64,000 nucleotides of DNA from an uncultured Eubacteriales bacterium (GCA_964607705.1 CAZSLI010000002.1:2791-66790), one strand, 5' to 3'; counted from the first letter of the stretch, positions 47,263-64,000 are shown. Translations and numbers: made by a program. The notes: generated by a model from the sequence alone, not told the origin.

Positions 47263-47746
47263 CCGCGGGCACCTCTTCGTCGTCGGCTCCGGGGACCGCC
47301 GAGGCATACTCGGAACGGGGAACCGCCTCATCCAGGTTGAGCAGTATCACAAGCTTGCCGTCCCGCTCGACCACACCGGAGAAGGCGCGGGCGGTCTCAG
47401 GCGCCAAGACGCCGTCGGGGACAGGGTTGACGGACTCGGGTTCGAACTCGGTGACCTCGGTAGCGGAATCCACAGCGACACCCACCGCGCCAGCAGCGCC
47501 CTCTGCGACAACGATGCGCGAGAAGGTCCCCGGCTTGAATGGGATCCCCTTGAAGCGCATGTGGAGATCGACCACCGGAATGACGCGGCCACGGAGGTTG
47601 ATCACCCCCAGCACCGAATGCGGGGCCCGGGGGACCGGCGTCGCCTCCTCGAAGCGGATGATGCTGTTGACGGCGGCGACCGGCAGGCCGTATTCCTCAT
47701 CGGCCAGATGGAAGACCACGTAGCTGTTCGCCAGAGGTTTGCTCAT
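47255..47746 (-). CDS. cheW: chemotaxis coupling protein CheW
   Basis: 163 aa. FHLADEEYGLPVAAVNSIIRF...VLGVINLRGRVIPVVDL is the CheW pattern. Confidence 0.92.
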   Translation of the reverse strand: MSKPLANSYVVFHLADEEYGLPVAAVNSIIRFEEATPVPRAPHSVLGVINLRGRVIPVVDLHMRFKGIPFKPGTFSRIVVAEGAAGAVGVAVDSATEVTEFEPESVNPVPDGVLAPETARAFSGVVERDGKLVILLNLDEAVPRSEYASAVPGADDEEVPADV

Positions 47747-47754
47747 CGCGTGCT

Positions 47755-49071
47755 CTAGTCGACCCGGAACCGGTGAACGGTCTCGTCGAGACGCTGCGCC
47801 ATGTCGGCGAGATCCTGGGCCGACGCGGTGATCTCCTGCATACAGGCCGTCTGCTCTTCGGCAGCGGCGGCGGTCTCTTCGGCGGAAGCGGCGTTCTGCT
47901 CGACCACCGCAGCGATCTCGTGCATCGCCCGGTCGACATCCGTCGTGCGTCGCGCCTGCTCGCTCATCGACTTGGCGATCTCGTCGGCCAGCTGGCTCGT
48001 GCGGGAAACGGCGTCACTGATCGCGCGGAGCGCCTTGCCGCTGCGGCCGACGACCTCGCTGCCGACCTCGACCTCGCGCGTACCGATCTCCATGTATCGC
48101 ACGGCCTTGGCTGTCTCCGCCTGAACGTCTTGGATGAGCTCTCCGATCCGCTCGGCCGCCTGCCCAGAGCCCTCGGCCAACTTGCGGACCTCCTCGGCGA
48201 CGACCGAGAACCCGCGGCCCGACTCGCCGGCACGCGCGGCCTCGATCGCTGCGTTGAGCGACAGGAGGTTGGTCTGGTCGGCGATGTTGGTGATGACGTC
48301 GACGATGCCGCCGATCTGCTCGCTTCGCTTGCCGAGGACTTCGACCGAGGATGCGAGCGTCTCGATGGCCTGCTGGACCTCGGCGATCTTCACGATCGCC
48401 TGCTCGGTCGCCTCCTCGCCAGCGCGAGCGACCTGTGCGGCCTCGAGACTCGTGGTCGCCGCCTCGGTCGCCTTTGACGCGACCTGCTCGGTTGTGGAGG
48501 TCATCAGGGCGACAGCGCGGCTGGTATCGTCGACCTTGCGCGACTGCAGCTCGGCACCATGCGCTATCTGCTGCACCGACGAAGAGATCTCGATCGTCGA
48601 TGAGTTGATCTCCTCGGAAGACGCCGAGAGTTCGGATGCGGCCGCTGACACCGAATCGGCCGAGCGTCGCACCTGCGACGCGATGCCGGAGAGCGACTCG
48701 ATGAGCAGGTTGCATTCGCGAGCAAGCTCGCCGATCTCGTCATTGCGCTGGATCCGGGCGCGTACGCGCAGATCCCCCTCGCCGGCCTGGATCATCGTGC
48801 CGCCCAGGTCGCGAAGCGGACGGAGGATCCTGTCCTTGAACTGGATGCGCCACAGCCAGGTCCCGACGGGCGCCATGAGGAACATCGCGACCGCGCCCAC
48901 CGCCATGACCGGCGCCATCTCGGCCAACGAGAGGTCGAGGAAGTAGTAAGCGAAGATCGCCGTCAGAATCAGTCCGAACAAGACCGCCGGTCCGATCGCC
49001 ACCCAGGTGAGCAGCGTAAAGATGAAGGACAGCCCGCCTCTGACGGTGCTATCCCTGTGTTCCTGCGCCAT
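47755..49071 (-). CDS. methyl-accepting chemotaxis protein (2 TM, HAMP, MA domain)
   Basis: 438 aa. HAMP ([21 protein letters not shown]) and the conserved hairpin [35 protein letters not shown]. Very short extracytoplasmic loop. Confidence 0.92.
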
Positions 49072-49121
49072 CTGGCTCGTTCCCCTCCGCGGCCCTTCCG
49101 GGCAGCTGACGTCCCCCCGGC

Positions 49122-49970
49122 CTAGTAGCGGACCGGCTTGCGATAGATACGCTCTCTGCCATCTATCGGCTCAAAGCGCTCCGCGGCTTGAGGGCTCAAC
49201 TTCTCACTGCGCCCCAAGACGAGATAGCCTCCGCGCGCCAACGCTCCCCAAAACGTTTCGAGCGCTCGCGCCTGCTGCTCTCGATCGAAGTAGATGAACA
49301 CGTTGCGGCACATGATGAGATCGATCGATCGCTGTGGCGCCGGATCGAACAGGCTCGCTTCGCGGAACCGTACGATCTTGCGTACCGACGGGTCCATCTC
49401 GAACGCTTCGCGATTAACCGGCTGGGTGAATCGTACCTGATAACTGGCCGGGATGTGGCGCAGCCGCTGGTTGTCGAAGACGCCCAGCTCGGCCCTGCGC
49501 AGCGCCTCCCGGTCGAGGTCCGTCGCCAAGACTGACATCAGGTAGCGTGACTCGTCCTTCCCAACCGCGTCGAGCAGCATCATGGCGAGCGAATAGGGCT
49601 CTTCTCCGGTAGCACACGCCGCAGACCAAAGGCGGATCGTTCGACTTCGCCCCTCGGACTTCGACTCGAGCATGGGCCGCATGACATTACGCTTGATCGA
49701 GTCCCACACGACCTGGTCGCGGAAGAACTCGGTGACGTTGATCGTCAGCGTGTCCAAGAGGCGTTCGTACTCGTTCGGATCCGACTCTAGGACATCGGCG
49801 TACTGCCTGAACGAGTGCAGGTCGAGGGCGCGCAGCCGCGTGGTGATGCGCCGCTCCACGTACGCTCGACGATACAGCGACAAGTCGATGCCGCGTGCAT
49901 CGTTGACCTTGTCGATGAGTCGGTCGAGGCTGCCGCGATAGACTCCTGAGGAACCGCCCTCTTCCACGCG
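49122..49970 (-). CDS. cheR: chemotaxis protein methyltransferase CheR
   Basis: CheR N-domain ([16 protein letters not shown]) and SAM-MTase domain ([31 protein letters not shown]). I place the start at GTG 49970 after GGAGGGGGG. The track ORF extends to 50024. Confidence 0.88.
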
Positions 49971-50025
49971 CCCCCCTCCGACAGACACAACCGACCCCGC
50001 GTGTGAAGTGCTAGATATGCGCACC

Positions 50026-50031
50026 TATAAT
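50026..50031 (+). promoter_or_regulatory. perfect TATAAT box in the cheR / L,D-transpeptidase divergent region
   Basis: Plus-strand TATAAT at 50026-50031 within an AT-rich patch (CCTATAATAGTATGCC). No convincing -35. It could serve the ldt gene or, as ATTATA on the other strand, cheR. Confidence 0.3.
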
Positions 50032-50078
50032 AGTATGCCAGTCAGTTCGTGCATCTCGCCGAAGAAAGGCGCCGGCTG

Positions 50079-51140
50079 GTGAAGGCCCCGAGCATCACTC
50101 AGAAGGTGGTCGCCGTCATTGCCGCGGCCGTCCTGCTCCTGCTCTCAAGCGGCTTGGCCTGGGCCGCCGCCAACGACTACCGAGAACGCGCCTTCGTTCC
50201 CCAGGGAGTCTCCGTCAACGGGACAGATCTCGGCGGCATGACCGAGGCCGAGGCCCGGACCGCAATCGAGCAGGCCGTCGCCGCCCCGCTCATGCGGCCG
50301 TTGGACGTCACGGTGGACAGCAGCACGGTCTCGTTCGATCCGCAGGATGCTGTGCGAGTCGACGTGGAGTCGATGCTCGACCAGGCATACGGCGCGCGCC
50401 GAAAGGCCGCCTTCGTCGCACGCGTACGGCACGACGTGGCGCATGAGCCCCTGACGGCCGTAGTGCGCCCCCAGTACTCGGTCGATGCCACGGCCGTCCA
50501 CACCTGGCTCACGGAGGTCGCCTCCACCGTTGACCGCCGAGCGGTCAACGCCACCATCACGGTAAGCGACGGCGCCGTGAAGCTCCGGCCGTCTGGTACC
50601 GGCAGGAAGACCGCCATCGATGACGGAGTCGCCAAGATCGTCGCGGCCTTCTCCGACGAGAGCGCTCTGTCCTCCTCGGCAGAGCGCGCCGTCGTCGTAC
50701 CGGTGGCCGTTCTCAAGCCGAAGGTCACCGAGAAAGACCTCGGCAAGACCATCGTGGTCGACCTCTCCGAGCGCCGTATCCGCCTCTATGACGGAGCGAA
50801 GATCGAGAAGACGTACCCCTGTGCGATCGGCACTCCGGACCATCCCACCCCGAAGGGGCACTTCGAGATCGTCCTCAAGCGCTACCTGCCCACGTGGGTC
50901 AATCCGGCGCCCAACAGCTGGGGCAAGGACATGCCTCCCTCTATACCGCCGGGGCCGGGGAACCCGCTCGGCACCCGCGCCATCAACCTGAGCGCGTCAG
51001 GCATCCGGTTCCACGGAACGACGAATCTCGGGTCCATCGGAAGCGCCGCGAGCCACGGGTGCATGCGAATGGTTCGGGCTGACGTGGAGGACCTGTACGA
51101 GCGCGTCAAGATAGGCGACCAGGTCTACATCGTCCCCTAG
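50079..51140 (+). CDS. membrane-anchored L,D-transpeptidase (YkuD domain)
   Basis: N-terminal TM helix, a long linker domain and C-terminal YkuD (IRLYDGAKIEKTYPCAIG...HGTTN...SHGCMRM). I place the start at GTG 50079. The track ORF starts at 50049. Confidence 0.88.
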   Translation: MKAPSITQKVVAVIAAAVLLLLSSGLAWAAANDYRERAFVPQGVSVNGTDLGGMTEAEARTAIEQAVAAPLMRPLDVTVDSSTVSFDPQDAVRVDVESMLDQAYGARRKAAFVARVRHDVAHEPLTAVVRPQYSVDATAVHTWLTEVASTVDRRAVNATITVSDGAVKLRPSGTGRKTAIDDGVAKIVAAFSDESALSSSAERAVVVPVAVLKPKVTEKDLGKTIVVDLSERRIRLYDGAKIEKTYPCAIGTPDHPTPKGHFEIVLKRYLPTWVNPAPNSWGKDMPPSIPPGPGNPLGTRAINLSASGIRFHGTTNLGSIGSAASHGCMRMVRADVEDLYERVKIGDQVYIVP

Positions 51141-51194
51141 CAGGCGAGCTCGCTCGCCGAGGGCTGACTCCTCGGCCGCACTGAGCCGTCGCGG

Positions 51195-54100
51195 CTAGCG
51201 GACGTACACCGTGCGGAACGTCGAGTACGACGGCGCGTGAGCGGTGTCCGCGTGGTATGCCCGTATGATCCACTTGCCCGTGTAGGGCAGCGACACGTAG
51301 CCGTAGTAGCGGCTGTAGCTGCTGTAGTTCTTCACCTTCACGCTGATCGTCTTGCGCAACTTGGGCTTGCCGCTCTCATAGCGGTAGCACTGGAGCTTGA
51401 CTGCGTAGGTGCCCGAGGAGTGGCGCGGCTTCAGGTTGCCGTACGTGCTGAAGCGCACGTTGCGTCCGGTTCTTGACGGCGCGTACGGCGTCGAGAGATA
51501 GACCTTCGGAGTCACTGCGAACACCTGCGTCGCTGCCGCGGCCTCGAAATCGGCGTCCGCATCGGTCGTCAGGCGGTACGAGGTCTTCACGGTTGGCTTG
51601 ACCGTGAAAGACACCTTGCCGGCTGCATCGGTCTGGCGGCTGTCGACTCTCCGCCAGCTCCCGGACAGGTACTCAAGGAAGACGGTCTTGCCCGGCAACG
51701 CTCCACTCTCCACGGCGCTCCACGAACCGCTGATCGCCGCGCTGCCGCCGTACGCGATGACGCTCGCCGAAGAAGCGCCCGAGAGCTGCGTCGACTCCTT
51801 GGGGTCTACCGAGAGACGTGTGGCACGAGCGGACTCGTTCCCCGCACCGTCGTACGCCACGAACTCCACCTTCACGGGGCGATAGCCCGACCACGACACC
51901 TCGTCGGGCGTCCAACTGGTCTCCCAGCTGCCGTCCGGGTTCACGGTCACCGGGAGTCTGATGGGCTCAGGCTGCCAACCGGCGCCGCTCCAGTACATTG
52001 CGTCCCGGGTGATCGCTATGCTTGCCGCGTCGATTCCGGACCGTGAGTCTGATGCTGTCCCGGAGAGCGTGACGGTTGCCTCGCGCGTCAGCGGGAACGG
52101 CACGTTCGCTTGAGCGATAGTGGCGCTGGGCGCCGAGGTGTCGAGCACTATCGAGTCGGAGGCCGTGGCCCCCACGGTATGGCTTGCGTCAGACGAGAAC
52201 CGGAACGTCACCGTCCGCGTACCCTCGCCTGCGCCTAGTGACAGCGTAGCCGCCGAGGACCCGCCGTAAGGCATCCACTCGCTGGGCGCACCGCCGTCAA
52301 CCTGATAGCTCACCGAAGTCGCTCCGACCGCGGACACCGTCGCCGTCACCGTCTGCGAGCCGGTGTACCGATCTCCGCCGTTGAGAGCGATCTGCGCTGC
52401 GATCGGCACCGCCGAGACGACGCCGGGCGTGGTGACTGAGACGAGTCCGTAGCCGTCGGTCGCATGCGCCTCGAGGGTGACCATCTCGCCGGGGATGATC
52501 TGATCGGGCGTCAGCGTCCAATCGTAGTACCAGCTGGCCCCGCCCGTGACAGGGAGCCAGACCTCGGCCCCGTTGTTCCAGCCGCTCCCGTTCCAACAAC
52601 GACCGGAACTCCGCCTTATCAGCACCTCGACGCCTTGAACCGTGCCTCCCGTGTCTGCGGCTGTACCCGAGATACGTGTGGTGTTTGCCGACAGCCTGAA
52701 TCCCGCCGCAGGTGAACTGATCGCGACGCTGGGGACCGACGTGTGCAGGACGATGTCGTCACTGGCCGAGGCCTCTACGCTGGCCCCTCCGGTGGACGAG
52801 AAGCGGAACCAGACGCGCTTCACGCCGTCACCGGCAGGCAGCGTGATACCGGTCGCCGAGGCGTACGGCTCCCACGCCGAGAAGGCGCTGCCGTCGAAGC
52901 TCATCTGCATGTGGGTGGGCGTGCCGGTGGTCGCCACGGACGCGATGATGCCGCGCGTCGTGGTGTAGGCCGCACCGGCTTGCAGTGAGACGGCGGCGGC
53001 GATGCCGACGCTCGAGTCCCTCTGGGCACTCGTCCCTTGCAGCCCCACGCCATCGGTCGCCCTGGCCGTCACCGAGACGATGTAGCCCGCGAGCTGATCC
53101 GTCGGCGGGACCGCCCAGTCGTACGACCAGCCGATGCCGGTCATCGGTAGCCAGAAGTCACCGGGCGTCCAGGCGAGGCCATTCCAACTACGCCCGTCCG
53201 AGCGGCGGATGCGCAGCTCCGTGGACGATATGATGCCGTCGACATCTGACGACGTACCGGATACGTGGACGAGCGGTGTGTTGAGCGAGAAGCCGGAGGC
53301 GGGAGTGGCCAACGCCACTTCGGGAATGCTGGTATGCAGAAGGATCGAGTCCGAGGCCGTAGCCTCGACACTGGCCCCGCCGGTGGACGAGAGCTCGAAA
53401 ATGACCGTCTTGGTGCCGTCGCCCGACGGGAGTGACACGGCGGCACTCGGAGCGTAGTCCTGCCAGCCCGTGAAGGTTGCTCCGCTGTCCACGCTCCACC
53501 GCATCTTGTTGGGAGTGCCCGTGGTGGCGAGGGATGCGGTGACTCCGGTGCTCGTCGTGTACGCCGCCCCGCCATTCAACGAGACGGCCGCCGCCACCGA
53601 GACGCTCGATGAGACCGTCGCCGCCGAGCCGACGAGTCCAACCATGTCTGTCGCGCGCGCCGAGATGGAGATGATCTGACCGGCGGCGAGTTGTCCTGCT
53701 GAAGGAGCCCAGCGGTACGACCAGTTGCCCGTTCCGGTCGCCGGGATCCAGGATGTTGCACTGCTCCATCCCGAGCCGGTCCAGGTGTAGCCGTCCGACC
53801 GTGTGATGAGCACTTCGACCGAGGTCAGGCTGCCTCCAGCGTCTGCCGCCGTCCCCGTGATGGTCACCGGCACACTCGTGAGCGAGAACCCGTTCGCGGG
53901 CTGTGCGATCGCGACGGAAGGCACGCTCGTGTGCAGCAGGATGGAGTCGCTTGCCGTCGCATCAGTCGTACCGTCGCCTGCCGATGAGAACTCGAACGTG
54001 ACGGTCTTCACGCCATCACCCGCGGTCAAAGTGACCGCCTTGCTTGCCGAGTACGGCTCCCAAGCGTTGTAGCCCGTGCCGTTGTTCCAGCGCATGCGAT

Positions 54101-56081
54101 TCGGCGTGCCGGTCGTCGCGATCGACGCGACAACGGTAGTTCCGCTGGCATACGTGTCGCCCGTGTTGAGCGCCATCGAGGCCACGACGGGCACGCGTGA
54201 CGTCACGCCCGCACTCGAGCCGGTGAGCCCGGCCGCATCGACCGCGCGTGCGGTGAGCGTGACCGCCCGGCCGGAAGCACGAACCGACGCATCCGGAGTC
54301 CAAGCGAGCTGCCAAGTCGCATAACCATCGCTCGTCGTCACCGGCAGCCAGGTCTCCGTGGCAGTCCAAGCGGTGCCGTTCCACGTCAGGCCGTCAGCCC
54401 GCTGGACGCGAACCGACACACTTGACACAGCACCTACCGCGTCGAATGCCGTGCCGGCTACGGTGACCGGCCCGTTCAGCGAGAATGCCGTGCTGGGACT
54501 GGTGAGCGCGACCGACGGCGCCTGGGTGTCGAGCGTGATGCCGTCGGATGCGGTTGCGGCGATGGTGGCTCCGCCGTCCTTGGAGAACTGGAAGGTTACG
54601 AGCTTAGCGCCATCTCCCGGCGGGAGGACCACAGAGGCGGCGGTGGAGTACGTCGACCAGCCGGTCCATGACGCTCCCCCGTCGACCGACCAGCGCATGA
54701 CGCTCGCCCCGGGCGCCGAGATGCTCGCCTGGACGGTGCCTTGCGTGGTCGTGGCGGCACCGGCGGCGAGCGCCACCGAGGCGACCATCGGGACCTGCGA
54801 CGAGACGGTCCCGCTGACGGTCGTCAGGGGCGTACCGTCGGTGGCGCGCGAGGTGACGGACACGATCTGACCCGAAGCCAAGTCGGCGGCTGAGGGAGTC
54901 CATGAGTAGCTCCAGGTGCTCCAGTCGCCTGCCGCCCGGGGCTGCACGGCGAGCCAGGTATCGGCACTCGTCCATACACCAGGCGTGCCGGTGAAGCACT
55001 GGCCGTCAGCGCGGCGGATCCGCACTCCTACCGACCGTACTCCCGTGCCTATGTCCGACGCGGTGCCCGTGATGAGAACCGGGGATGACGAGAGCACGAA
55101 GTCCGCAGATGGAGAGGCCAAAGAGATGCCCGGCGGGTTCGAGGGGACACTGACTGTCACCTCGGACGAATGTCCGTAGGCGCCGTTGGCGTCCCACGTC
55201 TGCACTGAATAGCGGTACTGCCGGCCCTCGCCCCTGATCGGCTGGGACAGTGTCAGGTCGGCGGCGGCGCTTGAGACCGACGGCGTGATGTCGTTCCATG
55301 CGCTGCTTCCGCCGTCCGCCCACCATGCCTTATAGAGGATGGGACGGGTCTCGAGCGCTGTGGTCGTGGTTGACGAGTACGGCCGCTTCCATGACAGCTG
55401 CACCGCTGAAGTGCCCGCAACGGACGTGAACTCGCGCGGCGGCCCATACTTCCAGCCGAAGAACTCGACGTCATCGATCGTGGGACCCAGACCGTCAGCG
55501 TCCATGGGCTTGTTCTCGAAACGTATGCGCGCGTAGCCCGCGCGTCGCGAAAGGCCGTATGGCGAGCTGCCCAAGTCGTAGCTCACCTTGCGCCAGCTTG
55601 CCGACGTGCCAAGTCGCGCAGGAGCGGAGAACTGGCTGCCTGCGACGCCCCAGTTCGCATAGAAGTCGTCTGCGGCGCCCATGCTCGGATTGATGAAGTA
55701 GTAGCTCAGGTCGCCGGTGTAGTAGTCGGCCATCTGAGGAAGATCGAACCGGATCTCGCTGCTGGCGTAGTAGGAGTACCCGTAAGTCGGATAGGTGCTG
55801 GCTAGGAGTGTGTCGCTTCCGCTGCACCACAGGCCGGTGGACCCCCCGTACACGCTGTTCTTCTCGCTAGTGATGGGACCCCAGGTGACGGCTTCGCTGC
55901 CATCGGCCCATGGCTGGGAGAACATCGTGTACTTGGGAGTGGTTCCGGGCTCGAATCCCTCACGACCGAGCAGCGAGACGCCGGACGTCGCAGGCCCGGC
56001 GAATGCGGGCGCAGGGATACACAGCGCCGCCGCGAGAGCGACCACCAGTAACGTTCTGAGAGAACGTGCCGGACGCTGCAC
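51195..56081 (-). CDS. 1628-aa secreted repetitive cell-surface protein (lectin-like N-domain, FN3, five and a half tandem double-Ig units, two C-terminal Ig-like domains)
   Basis: Signal peptide MQRPARSLRTLLVVALAAALCIPAPAFA. FN3-like aa 216-312. Repeats are delimited by ASD(S/G/D)I.L(H/D)T..P(S/E)VA. Thr/Ser/Gly/Ala-rich with no Cys-rich or haem motifs. Confidence 0.85.
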   Translation of the reverse strand: MQRPARSLRTLLVVALAAALCIPAPAFAGPATSGVSLLGREGFEPGTTPKYTMFSQPWADGSEAVTWGPITSEKNSVYGGSTGLWCSGSDTLLASTYPTYGYSYYASSEIRFDLPQMADYYTGDLSYYFINPSMGAADDFYANWGVAGSQFSAPARLGTSASWRKVSYDLGSSPYGLSRRAGYARIRFENKPMDADGLGPTIDDVEFFGWKYGPPREFTSVAGTSAVQLSWKRPYSSTTTTALETRPILYKAWWADGGSSAWNDITPSVSSAAADLTLSQPIRGEGRQYRYSVQTWDANGAYGHSSEVTVSVPSNPPGISLASPSADFVLSSSPVLITGTASDIGTGVRSVGVRIRRADGQCFTGTPGVWTSADTWLAVQPRAAGDWSTWSYSWTPSAADLASGQIVSVTSRATDGTPLTTVSGTVSSQVPMVASVALAAGAATTTQGTVQASISAPGASVMRWSVDGGASWTGWSTYSTAASVVLPPGDGAKLVTFQFSKDGGATIAATASDGITLDTQAPSVALTSPSTAFSLNGPVTVAGTAFDAVGAVSSVSVRVQRADGLTWNGTAWTATETWLPVTTSDGYATWQLAWTPDASVRASGRAVTLTARAVDAAGLTGSSAGVTSRVPVVASMALNTGDTYASGTTVVASIATTGTPNRMRWNNGTGYNAWEPYSASKAVTLTAGDGVKTVTFEFSSAGDGTTDATASDSILLHTSVPSVAIAQPANGFSLTSVPVTITGTAADAGGSLTSVEVLITRSDGYTWTGSGWSSATSWIPATGTGNWSYRWAPSAGQLAAGQIISISARATDMVGLVGSAATVSSSVSVAAAVSLNGGAAYTTSTGVTASLATTGTPNKMRWSVDSGATFTGWQDYAPSAAVSLPSGDGTKTVIFELSSTGGASVEATASDSILLHTSIPEVALATPASGFSLNTPLVHVSGTSSDVDGIISSTELRIRRSDGRSWNGLAWTPGDFWLPMTGIGWSYDWAVPPTDQLAGYIVSVTARATDGVGLQGTSAQRDSSVGIAAAVSLQAGAAYTTTRGIIASVATTGTPTHMQMSFDGSAFSAWEPYASATGITLPAGDGVKRVWFRFSSTGGASVEASASDDIVLHTSVPSVAISSPAAGFRLSANTTRISGTAADTGGTVQGVEVLIRRSSGRCWNGSGWNNGAEVWLPVTGGASWYYDWTLTPDQIIPGEMVTLEAHATDGYGLVSVTTPGVVSAVPIAAQIALNGGDRYTGSQTVTATVSAVGATSVSYQVDGGAPSEWMPYGGSSAATLSLGAGEGTRTVTFRFSSDASHTVGATASDSIVLDTSAPSATIAQANVPFPLTREATVTLSGTASDSRSGIDAASIAITRDAMYWSGAGWQPEPIRLPVTVNPDGSWETSWTPDEVSWSGYRPVKVEFVAYDGAGNESARATRLSVDPKESTQLSGASSASVIAYGGSAAISGSWSAVESGALPGKTVFLEYLSGSWRRVDSRQTDAAGKVSFTVKPTVKTSYRLTTDADADFEAAAATQVFAVTPKVYLSTPYAPSRTGRNVRFSTYGNLKPRHSSGTYAVKLQCYRYESGKPKLRKTISVKVKNYSSYSRYYGYVSLPYTGKWIIRAYHADTAHAPSYSTFRTVYVR
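52134..55136 (-). repeat. five tandem ~199-codon (~0.6 kb) coding repeats, with a partial sixth copy reaching about 51807
   Basis: Unit boundaries are at aa 316, 521, 720, 919 and 1117, and the last full unit ends at aa 1316. Each unit has two parts. The first is an Ig-like domain with ..(I/V)(T/S)GTA.D..G.(V/L)..V.V.I.R.DG..W.G..W. The second is a ..(L/I)N(G/T)G..YT....V.......G.P..M.......(F/Y)..W..Y......L..GDG.K.V.F.FS domain. Confidence 0.8.
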
Positions 56082-56095
56082 TTACCCACTACCCC

Positions 56096-56896
56096 TTAGC
56101 GCGCTGCGGGCACCTTCGACGCGATGTCGACTCCTAGCGCCTTGACGCTTGCCGGCTTAGTACCGGGCCGAACGGTGACCACCACTTCGAACGCGTACCG
56201 GCCGCGCGCGAATGCCACCGCCGCTACCCCTGCACCATTCGTGCCGAAGTAGCCTGAATCCACTATTCCTACACGCACGGGCTGAGCATCGACCGAATAC
56301 GGCCGCTTGACCGCGTTCTTCACGTAGGCCTGCGCCTTCGCTTCGGATCCCATGTCGTGTGCATAGACAGCAGCACGCGTCACGGTCGCGCGCGCCGCTC
56401 GGTCCTTCAAAGACGGCTCGAACGTGACCAGGGCATCAGAGCCCTGTACGGTCACACGGCCCTTGCTCCACGTCCCGTAAGACGAAGGAAGCAGAGTCCC
56501 GAGGTCCTTGACCGCCTTGGCGTACGGTCCGGCCGGCGGTGCCGCTGGTTCTTCGGCTGGTTGACCGCCCGAGACAGGGGTCTCGGTCGCGGGGGGCGCC
56601 TGCGCCGTATCGATCACACGCTTCGCAGTAGCGTTGTTCGGGTCCGCCTTGAGCGCCTTGTTCGCGAGCGCAAGGGCCGTCGCCGTCTGGTTCTGTGAGA
56701 GCGCCGCATCCGCGCTCGACGCAAGCTTCTCGGCCTCGAGGGTACCCTGCGTCACCGGTGCCGGTTCCTGCTGCTTCTTCGGCGCCGACAACGCTGACAT
56801 GCCGAAGATGACGGCCGCCAGACCCACAACCGCAGCACCCGCGATCGCGAGTTGCTTCCAGGTGAACTTAGGGCTGGCGTTCGGGTCCTTGGCCAT
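56096..56896 (-). CDS. single-pass membrane-anchored protein of unknown function (266 aa)
   Basis: ATG after GAGGGAG. One TM helix (LAIAGAAVVGLAAVIFGMSAL), a Pro/Ala/Glu linker and an extracytoplasmic globular domain of about 130 aa. It lies 21 nt after the 14-haem gene and 14 nt before the giant gene. Confidence 0.6.
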   Translation of the reverse strand: MAKDPNASPKFTWKQLAIAGAAVVGLAAVIFGMSALSAPKKQQEPAPVTQGTLEAEKLASSADAALSQNQTATALALANKALKADPNNATAKRVIDTAQAPPATETPVSGGQPAEEPAAPPAGPYAKAVKDLGTLLPSSYGTWSKGRVTVQGSDALVTFEPSLKDRAARATVTRAAVYAHDMGSEAKAQAYVKNAVKRPYSVDAQPVRVGIVDSGYFGTNGAGVAAVAFARGRYAFEVVVTVRPGTKPASVKALGVDIASKVPAAR

Positions 56897-56917
56897 GGGA
56901 ATGACGCTCCCTCGATA

Positions 56918-59917
56918 TCAGAAGACGTACGGGTAGTCTGCAGAGCTCATGTGACAGCCGCTCACGCACGAGCCACCGATCGGCTGACCGGAGCCCACCG
57001 TCTCGGTCCATTTCACCTCATCGCGCAGCAGATGCTTCTGCCGCGGGTTCCCGTGGCTCTCGTGGCACGAGCCGCACGCCATCCCGAGAGAGGCGTGATA
57101 CGAGTGCAGTCGGCTGGGTGTATCGGCGGTGTTGTAGAAGCCACTCTGCTTCACGCCATGCACCTCGCCGAGACCACTGACGTAGACGGCCGGCTCGTGG
57201 CACGTGACGCAGAGGCCGCTCGTGGAGTCGGCAGCGATAGCCACCTGCGGCTTCTTCAACAGCGGGAAGTTGGTCGAACGGTGAGGTCCTGCCGGCGTGG
57301 AGGCAGACGACCGGCCATGGCACGACGAACAGGTGAGCGTGTCGCCCGGCTGCGCGCCGTTGACGAGGACCTCTCCGAGCGAGTTGTCCGCGCGGGCCTC
57401 GCCCTCGATGGGATGGAACGACGCACCCAGCGTGTTGATCTCGGAGGCGATGCTGCGGACGTCGGCCGAAGCCCAACGGGAGTGGCAACTGAAGCAGACC
57501 TCGTACTCGGCGGTCGCGGTCTCGCGCTTCGAGGCGAGGCTCACCGTGCGCGAATCGATGTTCGTGGCTATGACTCCCTGAGCGCCGATGAGCGCGCCTG
57601 GCATCGAACTGGTGTCCGCGGATGCCGACTTGGCGAGGTGCGAGTTGTGACAGTCGGAGCACTCGACGTGCCGCGTGTCCATCGCGGACTCGGTCGACTC
57701 GTGTGCCCCGGGCGCCTGGCCAACCGTGTGCCGCGAGGGCCCGATCGCGCCTAGGTCCACTGCCACGACATGGGCGTTGCGCCCCGCCGCCTCGACACCG
57801 CCGACCTTGAGGTCGAACGAGCCGGTGACGTCTTGGCCGTCCACATCGGTCTGCAGCACCCTGAGCGACGGCGGCACGGCGTCCGCGGCGTGAGTGAAGG
57901 ATCCGGCGAGCGCCACGGTGACATCGCTCCGGCCGTCGCCGTTCGCATCGCCGAGCGCCAACCCGGAAGGCCTGGCGGCCGCAGGGGTGGCCGTGTCGAC
58001 CATCGAGACGAGCGGCGAGTCGGCTGACGGCATGATGCGCACGCCGCCGTCACCCGCCTCGTCAGTGAAGGTGACCGCGATCTCTCGGCCTGCCGTGCCT
58101 ACGGCCGGCGTCGCGCCGGGGAAGATGTCGCCCACGGCCAGCGCGCTCGCCTGCGCACCGGCAGCGAGCGGGCCGCCACCGGAGAGGTACTCTGTTCCAT
58201 TCGCCCTGTAGAGGGCGACCACGTCGGTCAGCTCGCCCGCGTAGGCCACTGCGATCTCTTTGGTGCTCGCCACGTCATCGATATCGGCGACTGCGGCGGC
58301 GACCGGCTGGCTCAGCGCGGCAACGTCCACATCGATCCGTAAACCGCCCAAGCCGTCGTCTGAGAGCACGTAGAGCCGGTCAGGCGCCGTGGTCGTGACC
58401 ACGATCTCCTCGCCCGGGCCGTCGGTCAGGTCGCCCAGGGCTATCGCCGTCGGGGTGCCCGTCACCGTCGCCGAGGACTTCGGCAGCATGGTGTGCCCGA
58501 GGACATTGGCGGTGATCACCTTGCCGGCGGCCGTCGTGTAGACGGTCTCGGGTGCGTCCATCAGGTCGAAGTAGACGTCGCCCACAGCAAGCGCGGTCGC
58601 CCGCTCCCCGCCGGGAAGCGAGAAGACGGTCTCGCTCACTATCCGGGACGCGTCGCGCTGTAGCATCGCCAGCTTCGCCGAGGACGTGCTGGCCACGAGC
58701 GCCTCGCCGGTGCTATCCCCGTCCACGTCTCCGGCGGCGATCGGGCCGATGGCGCCCAGGCCGCTCATGTCAGGGATCCGCGGGCCGCTGGGTATCGCCG
58801 CGGCTGTGGACTCGCGCGCGTAGAGCGCCACGCGGCCGTAGGCGGCGACCGATGCCTCGAAAGAGGCGAGCACCTCGAGACCGGGAGTCGTGGGACTGTA
58901 CTTCAGCGAGGCGAAGTCCGTCTTGGCCGGACCAGCCGCTTGGTGGCAACGGTCGCAAAGTGCGCGGCCCGAGGCGTCGAGGAGGTTGGGCAGCGGATTC
59001 CCTGTGCCATCCGAAGTACCCATCGCGTTGTGGCACGCCTGGCACTCGCCCACCGTGCGCGTGGCTCCGACACTCGCCCACTCCCCGCCCACCGGAACCG
59101 TGGATGCCGAGGAGGCGTGCGCGGAAGACGCGTACGCCGAGGAACCCGGCCAGACGCCGACACCGACACGGTGACAGCCTGCACACAGTGTCCGGTCGTC
59201 ACCCTTGACGGCAGCAGTCGCGGGCGCGGAAGGCGTGACCAGTGATGAGCGTATGTTCGCCTCGTAGGGTGAGCCATGCGGCTCGTGACATGCCGAGCAC
59301 ACGATCTTGGATGCCGTCGGCGCCTCGATGGCGGCATGAGGCGTCTTCGCCCAGATCGCCGCACCGGGGAAGCGGCTCGCGGAGCGCACCCAGTGGCATG
59401 ACGTGCAGAACTGGTCGCCCTGGTAGACGAGACTGCCGGTGACGGTTACCGAGCGGAGCAGGTCGGGGTACGGGGTCCCCGTCACAACGCGCGCCGAGCC
59501 GTGAGCGTCGTGGCAGGTACCGCATTGCTTGGACGCAGGGCCGAATGCCGATGGGCTCGGCGCGAGCAGATGCGCAGAGCTGGCCTCGAAGGACGACTGC
59601 ACGTCCGTGCCGGATCCCAGGGCGTCGACGCCGTGGCAGGTGTAGCACAACTCGACGTCTGCTTCGCCAGGGACCGCGAGCAAGGCACTCGACGTCGTGC
59701 CGGCTGAGTTCGTCCAGGTGCCCCTGCTCGGGGCGGAATGGGTCCTGTGGCACATCGCACAGACGTCGGTGTCGGCGGCGGCTGCAACGTGCGGCGGGAG
59801 AGTCGCTGTGGCCGAGGCAGGGGCTGCGGCAGCAGCATCGGGGTACGCGCATGCCAAGGCAACCGTCAGTGCGACGGCCGCCACGGCAAGTAGCCCGATG
59901 GTGTTGCGCAACCTCAC
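56918..59917 (-). CDS. 999-aa secreted multihaem cytochrome (8 + 6 haem motifs) interrupted by an FG-GAP/VCBS-like beta-propeller
   Basis: Signal peptide. 13 CxxCH motifs plus a C-terminal CVSGCH. The central part (aa ~345-735, nt 57713-58885) carries six or seven repeats of the type (A/G)(L/V)A(V/L)GD(V/L/A)(D/N/T)(G/D).....E(I/A)(V/A)V. Confidence 0.88.
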   Translation of the reverse strand: MRLRNTIGLLAVAAVALTVALACAYPDAAAAAPASATATLPPHVAAAADTDVCAMCHRTHSAPSRGTWTNSAGTTSSALLAVPGEADVELCYTCHGVDALGSGTDVQSSFEASSAHLLAPSPSAFGPASKQCGTCHDAHGSARVVTGTPYPDLLRSVTVTGSLVYQGDQFCTSCHWVRSASRFPGAAIWAKTPHAAIEAPTASKIVCSACHEPHGSPYEANIRSSLVTPSAPATAAVKGDDRTLCAGCHRVGVGVWPGSSAYASSAHASSASTVPVGGEWASVGATRTVGECQACHNAMGTSDGTGNPLPNLLDASGRALCDRCHQAAGPAKTDFASLKYSPTTPGLEVLASFEASVAAYGRVALYARESTAAAIPSGPRIPDMSGLGAIGPIAAGDVDGDSTGEALVASTSSAKLAMLQRDASRIVSETVFSLPGGERATALAVGDVYFDLMDAPETVYTTAAGKVITANVLGHTMLPKSSATVTGTPTAIALGDLTDGPGEEIVVTTTAPDRLYVLSDDGLGGLRIDVDVAALSQPVAAAVADIDDVASTKEIAVAYAGELTDVVALYRANGTEYLSGGGPLAAGAQASALAVGDIFPGATPAVGTAGREIAVTFTDEAGDGGVRIMPSADSPLVSMVDTATPAAARPSGLALGDANGDGRSDVTVALAGSFTHAADAVPPSLRVLQTDVDGQDVTGSFDLKVGGVEAAGRNAHVVAVDLGAIGPSRHTVGQAPGAHESTESAMDTRHVECSDCHNSHLAKSASADTSSMPGALIGAQGVIATNIDSRTVSLASKRETATAEYEVCFSCHSRWASADVRSIASEINTLGASFHPIEGEARADNSLGEVLVNGAQPGDTLTCSSCHGRSSASTPAGPHRSTNFPLLKKPQVAIAADSTSGLCVTCHEPAVYVSGLGEVHGVKQSGFYNTADTPSRLHSYHASLGMACGSCHESHGNPRQKHLLRDEVKWTETVGSGQPIGGSCVSGCHMSSADYPYVF

Positions 59918-61314
59918 TCTGCGGCGACCCCTTTCTCAGCGGCGAGCGCAGCAGACACGACGGCGGGGTCGGGCCTCTCGGCCCCTTCCCTTGCGGCGAC
60001 GTCTATCGCGACCGACAGAGCAGCGGCGGCGACGTCGAGCCGAGTGCCAGCGGGCACGGCGGCGAGAAGCTCATGGGTCCACACGGGGGGCTCAGCGTCT
60101 ACCGACGCCGAAGCGATCCACTCCTCGACGATATCGCGGTCGAAGACGGCGTCGCGCGCGGAAACGGTCTCAAGCTCGTCGTAGCGCCATGAGACCCGCC
60201 GCGCCGCAGCGAAGGCCTCAGCGACCTCCGGAGCGATGTCCGGCCGAAGGATGAGCATGAGACCGCCGAAGTCCTTCAGTGCCCAACGCAGAGAGGTCAG
60301 AGTGTTGACGATCTTGAGTCGCAGATCCGCGGGCACCGTCGGCCAGATCTCGAAACGGTCGAACATGACGGCGACCGCACGTATGCGCGGCGAAGCGAAC
60401 TTCACGAGCGCCACGAGTGTCTTGCTCGGCGCCTTCGAGACCTTGAGCTCCTCGGCCATCGACGATCGGCCCTGGGCCTGATAGGCCCTGACACCTCGTG
60501 CGACGACGGGTGAGAGATTCTTCTTGAGATAGGCGACAAGGTAGTCGCCGAGCAGCGACTCCACGTCCACAGGCTGAGCGTCGTCCGCAGCCGGGAGCGC
60601 AGTCTCGTCCACGTCGCCGAGCGGCGTGACGAAAGCGGCGGCCATCGGGTCGTCCGGGGAGTCCTCGGAGGCCTTCAGCGACTCCTCGCCCTCGGCCGGA
60701 TCGGTCTCCAGGCGATCGATACGCGCGGTGGACACGCGCATGAGCGCCTCGAGGTCCTCGGCTCCCTCGCGTGACGCAAGCGGCTCGCCGAAGATGCGCC
60801 GGGCGTAACCAGCAGGGTCCTCGGCCACGTCGGTTGCGACCGACGCGACGTCGAAGCCGGCCTCTGTGAGCGCCACCCACTCGGGCAGTGCCTCATCGGG
60901 AGTCGCAAGAGCGGCCTGGAGCCACGTGCCGATGGTCAGGTCCGGCTGACGCGCAGCCACCCACTCGGCTGCGGAATGCAGGACCGCCCGGACGCGCCCG
61001 ATGCGCATCATGTCCAGTGGCACGTAGAGCTGCATGATGCCGGGGACCGCCTCATCGGTGGCGAGCGCCCGCAGCGCAGGGGCAAGCGCCTGCACCGCGT
61101 AGATGGCGGGCAGGTCGCCCTTTTCCACGACGGTCGGACGGTGATCGGGGTCGGACGCGAGCACGTTCACGGCCGAAAGTAGCCGGTACGACGCGGCGAC
61201 GACCGACAGGCGCATACCATCGGAGTCGGTGGTGTCTTCTTGAGGGAGAGACAGCGGGTTGCCGAGCAGCCCAAGCGTGTCGAATGCGGGCGTCACAGCC
61301 TCGCGAGGTTCCAT
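59914..61314 (-). CDS. unknown 466-aa protein without signal peptide, translationally coupled to the 14-haem cytochrome gene
   Basis: The ATG at 61314 lies 8 nt after AAGGAG. The track ORF starts 3 codons earlier at a GTG. The stop TGA overlaps the GTG start of the next gene (GTGA). The protein is acidic and Ala/Leu-rich with no Walker A motif. Confidence 0.6.
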   Translation of the reverse strand: MEPREAVTPAFDTLGLLGNPLSLPQEDTTDSDGMRLSVVAASYRLLSAVNVLASDPDHRPTVVEKGDLPAIYAVQALAPALRALATDEAVPGIMQLYVPLDMMRIGRVRAVLHSAAEWVAARQPDLTIGTWLQAALATPDEALPEWVALTEAGFDVASVATDVAEDPAGYARRIFGEPLASREGAEDLEALMRVSTARIDRLETDPAEGEESLKASEDSPDDPMAAAFVTPLGDVDETALPAADDAQPVDVESLLGDYLVAYLKKNLSPVVARGVRAYQAQGRSSMAEELKVSKAPSKTLVALVKFASPRIRAVAVMFDRFEIWPTVPADLRLKIVNTLTSLRWALKDFGGLMLILRPDIAPEVAEAFAAARRVSWRYDELETVSARDAVFDRDIVEEWIASASVDAEPPVWTHELLAAVPAGTRLDVAAAALSVAIDVAAREGAERPDPAVVSAALAAEKGVAAE

Positions 61315-61460
61315 GCAGTGCACTCCTTACCGGTGGGGCGCGCGAGACCTGCCGGGGTCCCTTGGAGGACGCGTCCTCTGTCCAGCTCGAATTATAGCGG
61401 GATATGGGGTTTTGCACCTGCTGTTTGAGAACTCCGTGCCATCTGGAACGGGTTCACGAA

Positions 61461-61494
61461 GAAGGCCCCGACCGGTTTCCCGATCGGGGCCTTC
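61461..61494 (-). terminator. hairpin after the OmcS-like cytochrome gene
   Basis: GAAGGCCCCGA-(12 nt)-TCGGGGCCTTC, an 11-bp stem 34 nt after the stop at 61528. Weak U tract (TTCGTG) on the minus strand. Confidence 0.5.
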
Positions 61495-61527
61495 GCTCAC
61501 GCCATCAGGCGTTTTGCCACAGACGAA

Positions 61528-62817
61528 CTACTTGTTGTGGCAGCGCTCGCACACGCCGCGGTTGTCCGCGCGGAGCAGGGCGCTCGAAACGTTCGGGTTC
61601 ACGCCGGCCGGAGCAACCGTCGTAGGCTCGACCGTCCACGTGACGGAGGCCGTCGGGTTGTTCTTGAGGCGAGCGTTGGCCCATCCGGTCATCACGGCAG
61701 ACGAGCCGTGTGCACGGTGGCAGGTCAGGCAGCCCATGTAGTCGGTGAGCAGCCAGTTGCCGCTGCCGGTCGCACCCTTGGTCTGCACGGTCTTCTCCAG
61801 CGGAAGCACGGTGCTGGTGACGGCGTTGGTGCCAAAACCGTTGATGGTGTTGGCGCTAGCCGGCGTGATGTCGACCGGGTGGCGGTGACGGCCACGGTTG
61901 CCGATGACCTCGGTCGCGCCCGAGACGGACAGCTGACCGCTGCCGTCGCGAGTGAGCGTACCGTTGGACTCGTAGGCACCGTAGTTGTAGTTCGAGCTGG
62001 TCTCGTTGTAAGCCTCGTGGCACGCGGAGCACCAGGTCGACATGGAGCGGAAGCCCTCGCCCTGAGAGTAAGTGGCGTTGCCGCCGAACAGATACTCAGG
62101 CGTGGTGTAGTTCGGTCGATACGAAGCCATCTGCGCCGCACCCGGCTGATGCTTCAGCCAGCCGCCGACCGCGGTGGTCCCCACGGCAGAGACAGGGTAG
62201 CCCTGCTCAGACGAGAAGACGAACGGCTGCGGAACGTCGGCCGCCGTGTAACCGCCGACCGTGTGGTTGTTCACACGATCCTTGAGAAGGCGGTAGTTGG
62301 ACGAGCCGTGAACGTCGTGGCAGCTGGTGCAGGTGAGATCCGTACCCACGGGTGCCGACGAGCCGGCGCCCCACATCGGGTCGGTGACAGCACCCTTGCC
62401 CATGTCGTGCATGGACGACATGCCCGAGAACGCGCCGCCGTTGAGCGTGGCGTCCAGGGTCGAGTTCGTCTGGTAGAGGATGCCTCCACCGAGCGCGACA
62501 TTCTTCGCGCCGGAAGGACCGCCGTCGAAGATGCCTTCCTCGACGTTGGTCGACGCACCAGGAGCCATGGCACCGTGGCACGCGAGGCAGAACTCCTCCA
62601 TCGTGCTGGCCGACGAGACGAGCAAGGCGCTGTTCTGGCCGCCTGCGCCGTCAGTCCACGTCAGATCCGAGAAGGAAGTGTGAGCGCGGTGACAGCCAGC
62701 GCACGCATCAGTATCGAGCGCGTAGCCGCCGTGCGGGCCGAAGTTTGCAAAGGCGGTGCCGGTCATGGCCAACAGGGCCACGGCTGCGATCGCCAGGATG
62801 ATAAATGCTCTCTTCAC
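61528..62817 (-). CDS. secreted hexahaem c-type cytochrome, OmcS-like
   Basis: 429 aa. Signal peptide ...GTAFA/NFGPHGG. Six CxxCH motifs at Cys39, 77, 163, 263, 363 and 423. Their contexts resemble Geobacter OmcS (see findings). GTG start 8 nt after AAGGGGG, 20 nt downstream of the hydrogenase gene. Confidence 0.85.
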   Translation of the reverse strand: MKRAFIILAIAAVALLAMTGTAFANFGPHGGYALDTDACAGCHRAHTSFSDLTWTDGAGGQNSALLVSSASTMEEFCLACHGAMAPGASTNVEEGIFDGGPSGAKNVALGGGILYQTNSTLDATLNGGAFSGMSSMHDMGKGAVTDPMWGAGSSAPVGTDLTCTSCHDVHGSSNYRLLKDRVNNHTVGGYTAADVPQPFVFSSEQGYPVSAVGTTAVGGWLKHQPGAAQMASYRPNYTTPEYLFGGNATYSQGEGFRSMSTWCSACHEAYNETSSNYNYGAYESNGTLTRDGSGQLSVSGATEVIGNRGRHRHPVDITPASANTINGFGTNAVTSTVLPLEKTVQTKGATGSGNWLLTDYMGCLTCHRAHGSSAVMTGWANARLKNNPTASVTWTVEPTTVAPAGVNPNVSSALLRADNRGVCERCHNK

Positions 62818-62837
62818 TCAGTTCACCCCCTTATCGG

Positions 62838-64000
62838 TTAGTGGACCGCGCAAGCGATGCACGGGTCGAAGGACTGGGCAACGCGGAGAGCCTCGACGCC
62901 ACCACCGGTGGCCTGGACGTTGCCAGCCACGTTGGTGAACGATGCCCCAGCCGCATTGTACGGGATGCCGATCATGGCCTTCTCGATCGGGCCCTCGGTG
63001 CCGCCGGGCACGTCCTTGGGACCCGCGTTCCAGGTCGTCGGGACGATGCACTGGTAGCGGACGATCTTGCCCTTGTCCGTGGCACACATGTGCATGAGGG
63101 CTCCACGAGGAGCTTCCGTCGCACCGAAGCCGAAGCGGTAGCCCGGAGGCATCGTCTTGTGGCTGTAGGTGGCGGTGAACGTACAGTTGTTCAGCTGCTG
63201 GATCCAGCCGATGCCGGTACCCGTGGCGTTGACGGCCTTCCAGGTGAGCGGCGCGCCGCCGACGGCACCCTTGGTGAAGTCGCCCACGATCTTGGTGACC
63301 GTGACGAGCGACTCGAGCGCACGACCGCGCAGGCGGTCCATGGTGGACAGGCCACCCTTGAGGCCGACGATCCAGTCACGGACGACACCCATGATGACGG
63401 CGTTGGCGTTCGTGTAGACCGAAAGCAGCGTGGCATTGTCCGCACCAGCAGTGTTGGACTTGGTGTAGTGCGTGGCGCCGACCCAGACCTCTGCGAGGCC
63501 CTCGCGCAGCAGGGCGACCGCGAGGTCTGCCTCCACCATCGCCGGATCGAGACCGGTGTTGCCGGCCGCGGTCTTGACGTAGCGCATGTAGAGCGGGCTG
63601 AGGCCAGGCTGGCTGGCGAGCGTGGTGACACCGTCGACCGGATACAGGCCGCCGACGACCATGCGCGCGAACGGTCCGACTTCCATCGGGTAGTAGGTCC
63701 CGCTGACGTTCCAGCGAGGAGCCTTCAGCCATGAGTAGCCGACCGCGCGATTCGGGACCGTACGGGCCTCGGTCGCAGGATTGGTCACCGTGGTCGCGAC
63801 GACACTGGAGACGGAGCCGTCGGCGAGAACCTGGCCGCTCGTCACGGAGCCCGCGTAGTGCGAAGCGCCGATGAACTCGCGGAGGTTGTCGAGGACGTTC
63901 TGGCTCGTGATCGTGCCGCTGACACCGGTCTTGAGGCGGTAGCCACGGGCGAGGCCGAGCGTACCGTCCTTCTGCGGGAAGCCACCCCATGCGAGGAAGT
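62838..64000 (-). CDS. [NiFe] hydrogenase large subunit, group-1-like, C-terminal ~385 codons (gene continues beyond the right edge)
   Basis: Contains YSWLKAPRW, EVGPFARMVVG, STMDRLRGRALE, EAPRGALMH, VPTTWNAGPKD and the terminal FDPCIACAVH-stop. The frame is open to the window end according to the ORF track. In the sequence as printed, an extra C at 63900/63901 shifts the frame. Confidence 0.92.
   Translation of the reverse strand, partial: FLAWGGFPQKDGTLGLARGYRLKTGVSGTITSQNVLDNLREFIGASHYAGSVTSGQVLADGSVSSVVATTVTNPATEARTVPNRAVGYSWLKAPRWNVSGTYYPMEVGPFARMVVGGLYPVDGVTTLASQPGLSPLYMRYVKTAAGNTGLDPAMVEADLAVALLREGLAEVWVGATHYTKSNTAGADNATLLSVYTNANAVIMGVVRDWIVGLKGGLSTMDRLRGRALESLVTVTKIVGDFTKGAVGGAPLTWKAVNATGTGIGWIQQLNNCTFTATYSHKTMPPGYRFGFGATEAPRGALMHMCATDKGKIVRYQCIVPTTWNAGPKDVPGGTEGPIEKAMIGIPYNAAGASFTNVAGNVQATGGGVEALRVAQSFDPCIACAVH

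Follow-up and report, generated by a model that had tools for sequence, protein, structure and literature searches.

The question that this locus raises is what four closely packed genes, here called A, B, C and D, do for a bacterium that carries them directly behind the genes for a hydrogenase and a multihaem cytochrome. They occupy positions 51195-61314, on the minus strand, of a stretch of 64,000 nucleotides from an uncultured Eubacteriales bacterium (GCA_964607705.1 CAZSLI010000002.1:2791-66790); this whole stretch is referred to as the window. A first-pass annotation made from the sequence alone had regarded the four genes as one unit, a candidate for either an electron conduit layered through the cell envelope or a cytochrome assembly system. 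We found that A, C and D form a cassette that constantly adjoins an OmcS-type cytochrome, while B is often missing from it. This A-C-D cassette was previously undescribed, and the properties of its proteins and neighbours suggest that it probably aids the deployment of the OmcS-like cytochrome at the cell surface. The genes at the centre of the argument, with protein lengths in amino acids (aa), are the following.

62838-64000, minus strand: 3' part of a [NiFe]-hydrogenase large subunit gene (Pfam NiFeSe_Hases), running off the end of the window
61528-62817, minus strand: six-haem OmcS-family cytochrome, 429 aa, with a signal peptide and 6 CxxCH motifs
59914-61314, minus strand: A, 466 aa, cytoplasmic; ATG after an AAGGAG Shine-Dalgarno (SD) sequence
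56918-59917, minus strand: B, 999 aa, exported 14-haem cytochrome (haem motifs, Pfam domains)
56096-56896, minus strand: C, 266 aa, N-in single-pass membrane protein (transmembrane [TM] prediction, predicted structure)
51195-56081, minus strand: D, 1628 aa, secreted, with immunoglobulin-like (Ig) repeats (Pfam Big_7, repeat analysis)

Gene Order and Its Conservation

Our analysis reproduced the four minus-strand open reading frames (ORFs) at the sizes given by the first-pass annotation, together with their spacing: the stop of A and the start of B overlap as GTGA (B start GTG, A stop TGA), C starts 21 nucleotides (nt) past the stop of B, and D starts 14 nt past the stop of C. The mechanical ORF of A reaches further, to a GTG at 61323, and the spacer between the OmcS-like gene and A is 213 nt when counted to the ATG or 204 nt when counted to this GTG. 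The exact window proteins were found in only two Logan metagenome assemblies, DRR182650 and DRR182651.

Relatives of A were gathered from GTDB genomes, JGI metagenomes and a contig index, and tblastn and blastp served to set their loci against the window. The six-haem cytochrome gene was located directly 5' of A in all 16 contigs with upstream sequence, and the hydrogenase large subunit gene preceded the cytochrome in all 14 contigs reaching that far. On the other side, C lay downstream, after A or B, in 15 of 15 contigs with downstream sequence, and D came after C in each of the 13 that reached further. The order hydrogenase large subunit, OmcS-like cytochrome, A, (B), C, D recurs across 13-16 independent contigs whose proteins share only 27-70% identity; the genes are translationally coupled, lie on the same strand and are conserved beside the hydrogenase and OmcS-like unit. 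Considering that the A/B start-stop overlap is retained in all five other loci with B at this place, and that gene order persists in so many independent contigs, the tight packing is not a matter of chance.

The first-pass expectation that all four genes would stay together in related genomes did not hold. Of 15 related loci, only five (L003, L006, L007, L016, L018) have B between A and C, and nine (L004, L005, L008, L010, L012, L013, L017, L019, L020) lack it. In the remaining one, L011, a long-read metagenome-assembled genome (MAG) from Microflora Danica, a B homologue lies ~5 kb downstream of D, after a Big_7 segment; the genes of L011 are split by apparent frameshifts, and a 1336-aa B-family protein with Big_7 also occurs in the collection. 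On a rough neighbour-joining tree of A, loci that carry B are intermixed with loci that lack it, and the gain of B once in one clade was rejected as a simple explanation. Since B, the sole redox protein of the quartet, is absent in 9 of 15 loci and displaced in one, the four genes are no obligatory four-layer conduit, and the conserved unit is A-C-D.

Nor is the unit self-contained. Further 5' in relatives, beyond the reach of the window, there are genes for a ~480-aa polytopic membrane protein, a ~280-aa lipoprotein, a TPR protein and a membrane-anchored NHL propeller, and these four precede the gene of a hydrogenase small subunit with a twin-arginine translocation (Tat) signal. C and the lipoprotein of this upstream half are paralogues (hhalign 98.8%, E 6e-17). 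The polytopic protein (for example L017:1-2049, L016:1-1791 and L021:2542-4838) has at least nine TM helices and no family match, and it is always paired with the C-like lipoprotein. One relative, L020, keeps the TPR protein, NHL propeller, both hydrogenase subunits (small, HydS; large, HydL), the cytochrome, A, C and D, and its downstream flank is unrelated (UvrC, RapZ, WhiA). The core order has been kept there despite the unrelated flank, so the linkage is more than inherited flank synteny.

The OmcS-Like Cytochrome and the Hydrogenase

The cytochrome upstream of A had been called OmcS-like in the first-pass annotation, and it is a real homologue of the OmcS family. A search with the single sequence by phmmer returned nothing; a family profile of 11 members (A4) matched Geobacter OmcS (6EF8) over nearly its full length with E 1.2e-11, and OmcE was the second match (E 0.008). 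Positions 38-419 of the profile align to OmcS residues 8-406, and the haem motifs and the C-terminal CxxCHxK line up. The invariant H46 in CAGCHRAH (CxxCHxxH) aligns with His16 of OmcS in CEGCHTMH, a residue that in the published OmcS structure ligates a haem of the following subunit.

By tblastn, the hydrogenase fragment at 62838-64000 aligns without interruption, in one frame, with HydL of L016 and L017 (49-51% identity), and a frameshift in HydL was rejected on account of this one continuous frame. Among NCBIfam models, periplasmic NiFe(Se) types come nearest, with all scores far below cut-off, and enzymes of this kind classically reduce c-type cytochromes. Both subunits are unusually long and variable in L016-L020 and L005 (HydS ~450 aa, HydL 644-826 aa). 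Based on these lengths and on scores far below every NCBIfam hydrogenase cut-off, the hydrogenase may be an unclassified Group 1 lineage with an OmcS-like acceptor instead of cytochrome b.

Proteins of the Cassette

A carries no signal peptide, TM or hydrophobic segment and has no Pfam, NCBIfam or PADLOC family match, in line with the unknown cytoplasmic protein first described; a part in a defence system was rejected for want of a PADLOC match. Sequence and profile searches of PDB and a profile search of Pfam also gave nothing. When a profile of 20 A homologues was scored against 1.84 billion representative proteins, the family proved to be closed, with 147 representatives (~90 of full length) and no bridge to a larger family; a metagenome scan by the same profile added three short contigs only. 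The AlphaFold model (predicted local distance difference test [pLDDT] 84.5, predicted template modelling score [pTM] 0.81) shows a five-stranded alpha/beta core interrupted by a ~210-residue helical and acidic insert, with a helical C-terminal domain after it. Its best Foldseek matches are mostly AAA+ proteins (ORC1/Cdc6, TnsC, BrxC, Rpt) and are weak (E 0.3-3, TM 0.15-0.26). The Walker A P-loop GxxxxGK[ST] is absent, with no GK[ST] in 20 of 20 aligned members, and the consensus past strand 1 is VVEKxxxIPxYY. We tentatively regard A, from its modelled fold, as AAA+-like but no longer capable of canonical nucleotide binding.

C is single-pass, as had been predicted: an N-terminal TM helix (aa 13-36) is followed by one TPR unit with a capping helix (aa 50-99), a Pro/Ala linker and an alpha/beta domain (aa 123-266), in a predicted structure of pLDDT 87. 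The TPR was confirmed by profile matches to TPR proteins in PDB, with E down to 5e-21, and Pfam, NCBIfam and PADLOC gave nothing besides it. By Foldseek, the extracytoplasmic domain appears PsbP/Mog1-like, with BT_1490 (probability 0.96, E 0.012), mycobacterial TiME, CyanoP and RseB among the matches; this model-based assignment is weaker than that of the TPR.

D, in agreement with its first description as a long secreted Ig-repeat protein, has a cleavable signal peptide and consists of an N-terminal domain (aa 29-215), an FN3-like domain (216-310), a repeat region (310-1414) and two C-terminal beta domains. The repeat region contains 5.5 tandem units of ~200 aa, each composed of Big_7 and a second Ig-like domain. 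No relatives of the ~190-aa head domain were detectable in Pfam, NCBIfam or PADLOC, and the N-terminal region matched only FN3 in PDB. This head is the signature of the family. It is conserved among relatives whose length ranges from 517 to 1963 aa, and the number of repeats and the type of C-terminal domain vary. The C-terminus of D itself reads ...FRTVYVR and lacks a hydrophobic tail. Neither haem motifs nor redox motifs of other kinds were found in A, C or D.

Gene B

The first-pass reading of B as a 14-haem protein with a propeller is correct. B has a cleavable signal peptide and 13 CxxCH motifs plus one CxxxCH, which make 14 haem sites, and all 14 motifs together with ~15 other histidines are invariant in 22 homologues. 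It can be divided into three parts.

About 58943-59761, minus strand: N-terminal 8-haem region
About 57698-58900, minus strand: FG-GAP beta-propeller, the middle 400 residues
About 56951-57661, minus strand: C-terminal 6-haem region

Pfam matches were Paired_CXXCH_1, MtrC-II/IV and FG-GAP_3, the FG-GAP match lying above the Pfam cut-off. Sequence and profile searches of PDB returned propeller matches only, and in the profile search the propeller resembled ITFG2 and integrin alpha. Over its first ~120 aa, which bear haems 1-3, B shares homology with the N-terminal ~170 residues of the OmcS-like family (hhalign 99.7%, E 6e-26). The B family comprises ~90 clusters, and those members that carry an organism name are all from Coriobacteriia/Anaerosomatales or other Actinomycetota.

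Transcription and Translation Signals

Two elements lie between the OmcS-like gene and A.

61461-61494, minus strand: GC-rich hairpin, terminator or attenuator (folding energy against shuffled sequences)
61315-61396, minus strand: promoter-like -10 box and conserved leader 5' of A (TATAAT at 61391-61396)

The hairpin stands as first annotated (-35.1 kcal/mol, z -6.1; 0 of 200 shuffles fold as well). A hairpin with a stem of 13-16 base pairs, 18-45 nt past the stop of the OmcS-like gene and with a folding energy of -29 to -44 kcal/mol, was found in the window and in 12 of 13 related loci. Its position is conserved and its sequence differs among loci, which is the pattern expected of a selected terminator or attenuator. 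The convergent hairpins that had been placed after D, at 51143-51176, were not supported, as this region folds no more stably than shuffled sequence (z -0.84).

About 76-90 nt 5' of A there is a TATAAT or TATACT box, with T-A-T-A-x-T invariant in nine loci, and the leader of ~75 nt 5' of A shares the motif GGGAATCCGGCCGAT and the SD sequence GGTAAGGAG among nine loci; box and leader were found at the equivalent position in the window and in L003-L007, L009, L016 and L018. A scan for sigma-70 promoter and terminator patterns picked up neither the hairpin nor the -10 box because its criteria demand a T-tract and a -35 box. Since an Rfam scan of 49000-64000 revealed no RNA family and the conserved leader has no covarying structure, the leader may be a protein-binding operator. 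These signals suggest that A-D would be transcribed from their own promoter and that the hairpin would set a high ratio of the OmcS-like cytochrome transcript to those of its companions. The major-subunit genes of other filaments are arranged in the same way.

The Cassette in Other Lineages

The link between the cassette and cytochromes, which had been proposed from the window, recurs across lineages. In a Candidatus Aquicultorales MAG of a second class (L026), a C-like protein, a cytochrome, an A-like protein, another C-like protein and a D-head protein occur in that order (hhalign 97.8%, 96.3%, 84% with E 7e-6, 98.4%, and 98.6% with E 6e-16, respectively). The cytochrome is a 319-aa multihaem protein with the OmcS-family N-terminal motif. 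In L023/L024, from a lineage of 45.6% GC and with a sortase close by, a small membrane protein comes first; it is followed by a C-like protein, an A-like protein (86.5%, E 4.5e-6), a second C-like protein (99.3%, E 1e-20) and a 15-haem protein of 1621 aa. The latter, at the D position (L023:5313-10178), combines CBM96, BNR and Big_7 domains with 15 CxxCH motifs, and from this sequence it is classed as a surface-adhesin-like multihaem cytochrome. A 161-aa protein whose C-terminal motif is similar to that of the polytopic protein precedes the remote cassette in L023. Both remote A-like proteins came from the weak tail of the representative-protein search.

Part of the kit is also present in cultured bacteria. 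Parvivirga hydrogeniphila and Coriobacteriaceae bacterium EMTCatB1 have a locus with an OmcS-like cytochrome (41-43% identity), the polytopic protein, a C-like lipoprotein (36%) and an NHL propeller, and also with a 1223-aa BNR/Ig wall protein with three CWB2 domains followed by a B paralogue (38% identity), a B-family cytochrome of 13-14 haems with an FG-GAP propeller. The kit adjoins a molybdopterin oxidoreductase and an FeS protein. P. hydrogeniphila Es71-Z0120 is a cultured Fe(III) reducer, and its cluster MCL4079376-90 was considered by its authors to be the likely determinant of Fe(III) reduction (PMC9686372). The present locus, taken together with the upstream genes of its relatives, resembles this one in combining an OmcS-like cytochrome, polytopic protein, C-like lipoprotein, NHL propeller, large surface protein and B-family cytochrome. 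It differs in having a hydrogenase in place of the molybdopterin oxidoreductase and FeS protein, in having A, a TM-anchored C and D, and in that D contains none of the CWB2 domains found in the surface protein of Parvivirga.

Comparison with Known Systems

The nearest described system in kind is omcS/osc of Geobacter sulfurreducens, in which, according to PMC13194489 (citing Shen et al. 2025), the OmcS gene is accompanied by dedicated companions including a beta-propeller. The present locus likewise places a hexahaem OmcS-family gene amid non-haem accessory genes (the propeller here being NHL, with a TPR protein in addition), includes extra, larger multihaem cytochromes, and has a strong hairpin after the major cytochrome gene. 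The NHL propeller, encoded upstream in relatives and beyond the window, may be a counterpart of OscD. The differences are the monoderm host, in which an outer-membrane channel (OscEFG) is not expected, the coupling to an exported [NiFe] hydrogenase, and the absence of any annotated family match for A, C and D. In the window, L005 and L016-L020, the genes up to ~10 kb away from the OmcS-like gene included no OscH-type prolyl-isomerase and no porin/channel family.

The locus is not a porin-cytochrome system of the Mtr or Pcc kind (MtrCAB, PccF/OmbB-OmaB-OmcB), nor an OcwA- or OmhA-type set. No porin-like gene is present; B scores 51 bits against the DmsE/MtrA model TIGR03508, whose cut-off is 192; and the relatives appear monoderm, having sortase and CWB2 proteins. 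Among Gram-positive bacteria, OcwA of Thermincola potens and OmhA and SmhA-C of Carboxydothermus ferrireducens are cytochromes of extracellular electron transfer, proposed to carry electrons across a thick wall without a porin (PMC7829351). Those systems share with the present one secreted or wall-associated multihaem cytochromes, whereas companions of the A-C-D type are not described for them. When B and the hexahaem cytochrome were compared with solved structures, no sequence relatives of their haem parts were detected beyond OmcS and OmcE.

For the hydrogenase, the parallel is Desulfovibrio, where a periplasmic [NiFe] or [NiFeSe] hydrogenase works with cytochrome c3. Here too, the gene of a Tat-exported hydrogenase adjoins that of a multihaem c-type cytochrome, soluble or secreted, which is the likely acceptor in place of a cytochrome b, and the closest NCBIfam models are NiFeSe types. 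In contrast to Desulfovibrio, the scores are far below cut-offs, the subunits are longer, the acceptor is an OmcS homologue and the host is monoderm. A search of one literature collection found no paper linking OmcS to Coriobacteriia or Aquicultoria, and none describing this locus.

Weighing the Explanations

We favour the reading, which we put at about an even chance, that A-(B)-C-D makes up the distal half, with a promoter of its own, of a conserved envelope locus of monoderm Actinomycetota (Anaerosomatales-like Coriobacteriia, also Aquicultorales) and serves as an accessory scaffolding cassette for a surface OmcS-like cytochrome. By analogy, the cassette would be the functional counterpart of the companion genes of cytochrome filaments, and neither the conduit itself nor a haem-attachment system. 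In the mechanism that we propose, the OmcS-like cytochrome would receive electrons from the exported hydrogenase on the outer side of the membrane. C and its lipoprotein paralogue would be membrane-tethered TPR/PsbP-like adaptors that retain extracytoplasmic partners at the membrane surface, and D a haem-motif-free rod with a conserved head and a variable stalk that serves the cytochrome as scaffold, spacer or anchor across or above the wall. In loci that have it, B could act as an extra 14-haem wire whose OmcS-like three-haem module docks on, or exchanges electrons with, the OmcS-like protein and whose propeller mediates protein or substrate contact. A may have a non-catalytic part in assembly or regulation on the cytoplasmic side, perhaps as a partner of the polytopic membrane protein.

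Several observations weigh against this scaffolding role. D has no LPXTG, sortase signal or CWB2/SLH wall-binding domain by Pfam search, and its C-terminal domain differs among relatives. A is cytoplasmic, and its AAA+ assignment comes from weak Foldseek matches without sequence-level support. H2 oxidation and acceptor reduction on the same side of the membrane conserve no energy by themselves. The remote A homologues reach only 84-87% hhalign probability, and the members of the cassette are all from metagenomes or MAGs. No A, TM-anchored C or D was present within the ~23 kb examined of the Parvivirga locus, and no named Parvivirga protein was among the matches to the A family; the lack of A and D there means that these two are not universally needed. 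Moreover, the chemotaxis flank is syntenic in most Coriobacteriia relatives, though not in L020, and part of the conservation is therefore common descent.

The layered conduit of the first-pass annotation, with B as wire, C as anchor and D as outer scaffold, all fed by the OmcS-like protein, is the strongest of the alternatives and still unlikely. Its parts fared differently: B is an exported multihaem protein, C an anchor and D a long secreted Ig-repeat protein, while the obligatory four-layer set is weakened by the dispensability of B and the cytoplasmic nature of A, which could form no extracytoplasmic layer. The 14 invariant haem sites of B, its coupling to A wherever it is carried in the cassette, the three haems in common with the OmcS-like family and the paralogue beside a wall-bound protein in the Fe(III)-reduction cluster of Parvivirga all speak for a conduit. 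It is hard to reconcile with the absence of B from most related loci and its scattering on the tree of A, which leave the conserved cassette without a redox protein of its own, or with a proposed outer layer, D, that lacks haem motifs.

Somewhat less likely again is that A-C-D is a generic surface-adhesin or S-layer-like module, kept beside cytochromes by inherited synteny and having no role in electron transfer. The Ig-like and FN3 domains of D and its stalk of variable length are typical of adhesins, A, C and D are free of redox motifs, and the flank of chemotaxis genes and L,D-transpeptidase is itself syntenic within Coriobacteriia. However, the cassette stays by a multihaem cytochrome where the flank is another one (L020), in Aquicultorales and in the lineage of 46% GC, in which a 15-haem cytochrome occupies the D position, and C-like proteins recur in two kinds of oxidoreductase-cytochrome loci. 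This association across lineages, together with the cytochrome-bearing protein at the D position in L023, makes a pure adhesin module unlikely.

A system for cytochrome c maturation (haem export or attachment, or dedicated thiol-redox chemistry for the neighbouring multihaem proteins), for which only the position beside haem-rich genes and a faint TPR_CcmH_CycH-type match on the separate upstream TPR protein of relatives might speak, is very improbable, and as haem attachment it is excluded as far as sequence can tell: A-D resemble no maturation enzyme and match none of the CcmA-I, ResB/CcsA, CcdA or thioredoxin-like families in Pfam and NCBIfam, they have no conserved Cys pairs and no haem-handling His/Trp motifs in membrane segments, C has a single TM helix, and CcmE and CcmF are encoded elsewhere in the Parvivirga genome.

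Other Features of the Window

On the 3' side of D there is a convergent L,D-transpeptidase gene and then the chemotaxis operon. The latter is complete (41158-50024, minus strand; CheR, MCP, CheB, CheA and others) and lies beside the locus together with a GGDEF/GAF protein. At 27951-30104, also on the minus strand, there is a 717-aa multihaem cytochrome, a fusion of MtrC-like haem domains with an N-terminal module of NapC/NirT type, that could serve this organism as a membrane quinol dehydrogenase.

Implications

A bolder extension of the scaffolding role, which we consider doubtful, is that A, C and D, together with the polytopic protein, the C-like lipoprotein, the TPR protein and the NHL propeller, would be unrecognised machinery that builds and anchors OmcS-family filaments in cells without an outer membrane, with B as a minor subunit at the base or tip through its three-haem module. 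If this were true, the locus would connect an extracellular hydrogenase straight to a nanowire, and in Parvivirga the enzyme so connected would be a molybdoenzyme. If, on the other hand, the cassette were only an adhesin module, the finding would shrink to a conserved neighbourhood without assigned meaning.

The companion genes of cytochrome filaments are only starting to be defined, and in Geobacter alone. To this, the locus adds an OmcS homologue in monoderm Actinomycetota, encoded right after an exported hydrogenase, and a 14-haem protein with an OmcS-type N-terminal module that is a candidate minor subunit of a cytochrome polymer. It also offers a small, closed group of uncharacterised families (A, C together with its paralogue, and the D head), beside which only multihaem cytochromes are conserved as neighbours. 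These are testable candidates for anchoring or assembly factors, and cultured relatives, Parvivirga and Anaerosoma, carry part of the kit. The locus thereby bears on how electrons may pass through the thick wall of Gram-positive bacteria, and on how cytochrome filaments may be secreted, anchored and wired to enzymes.

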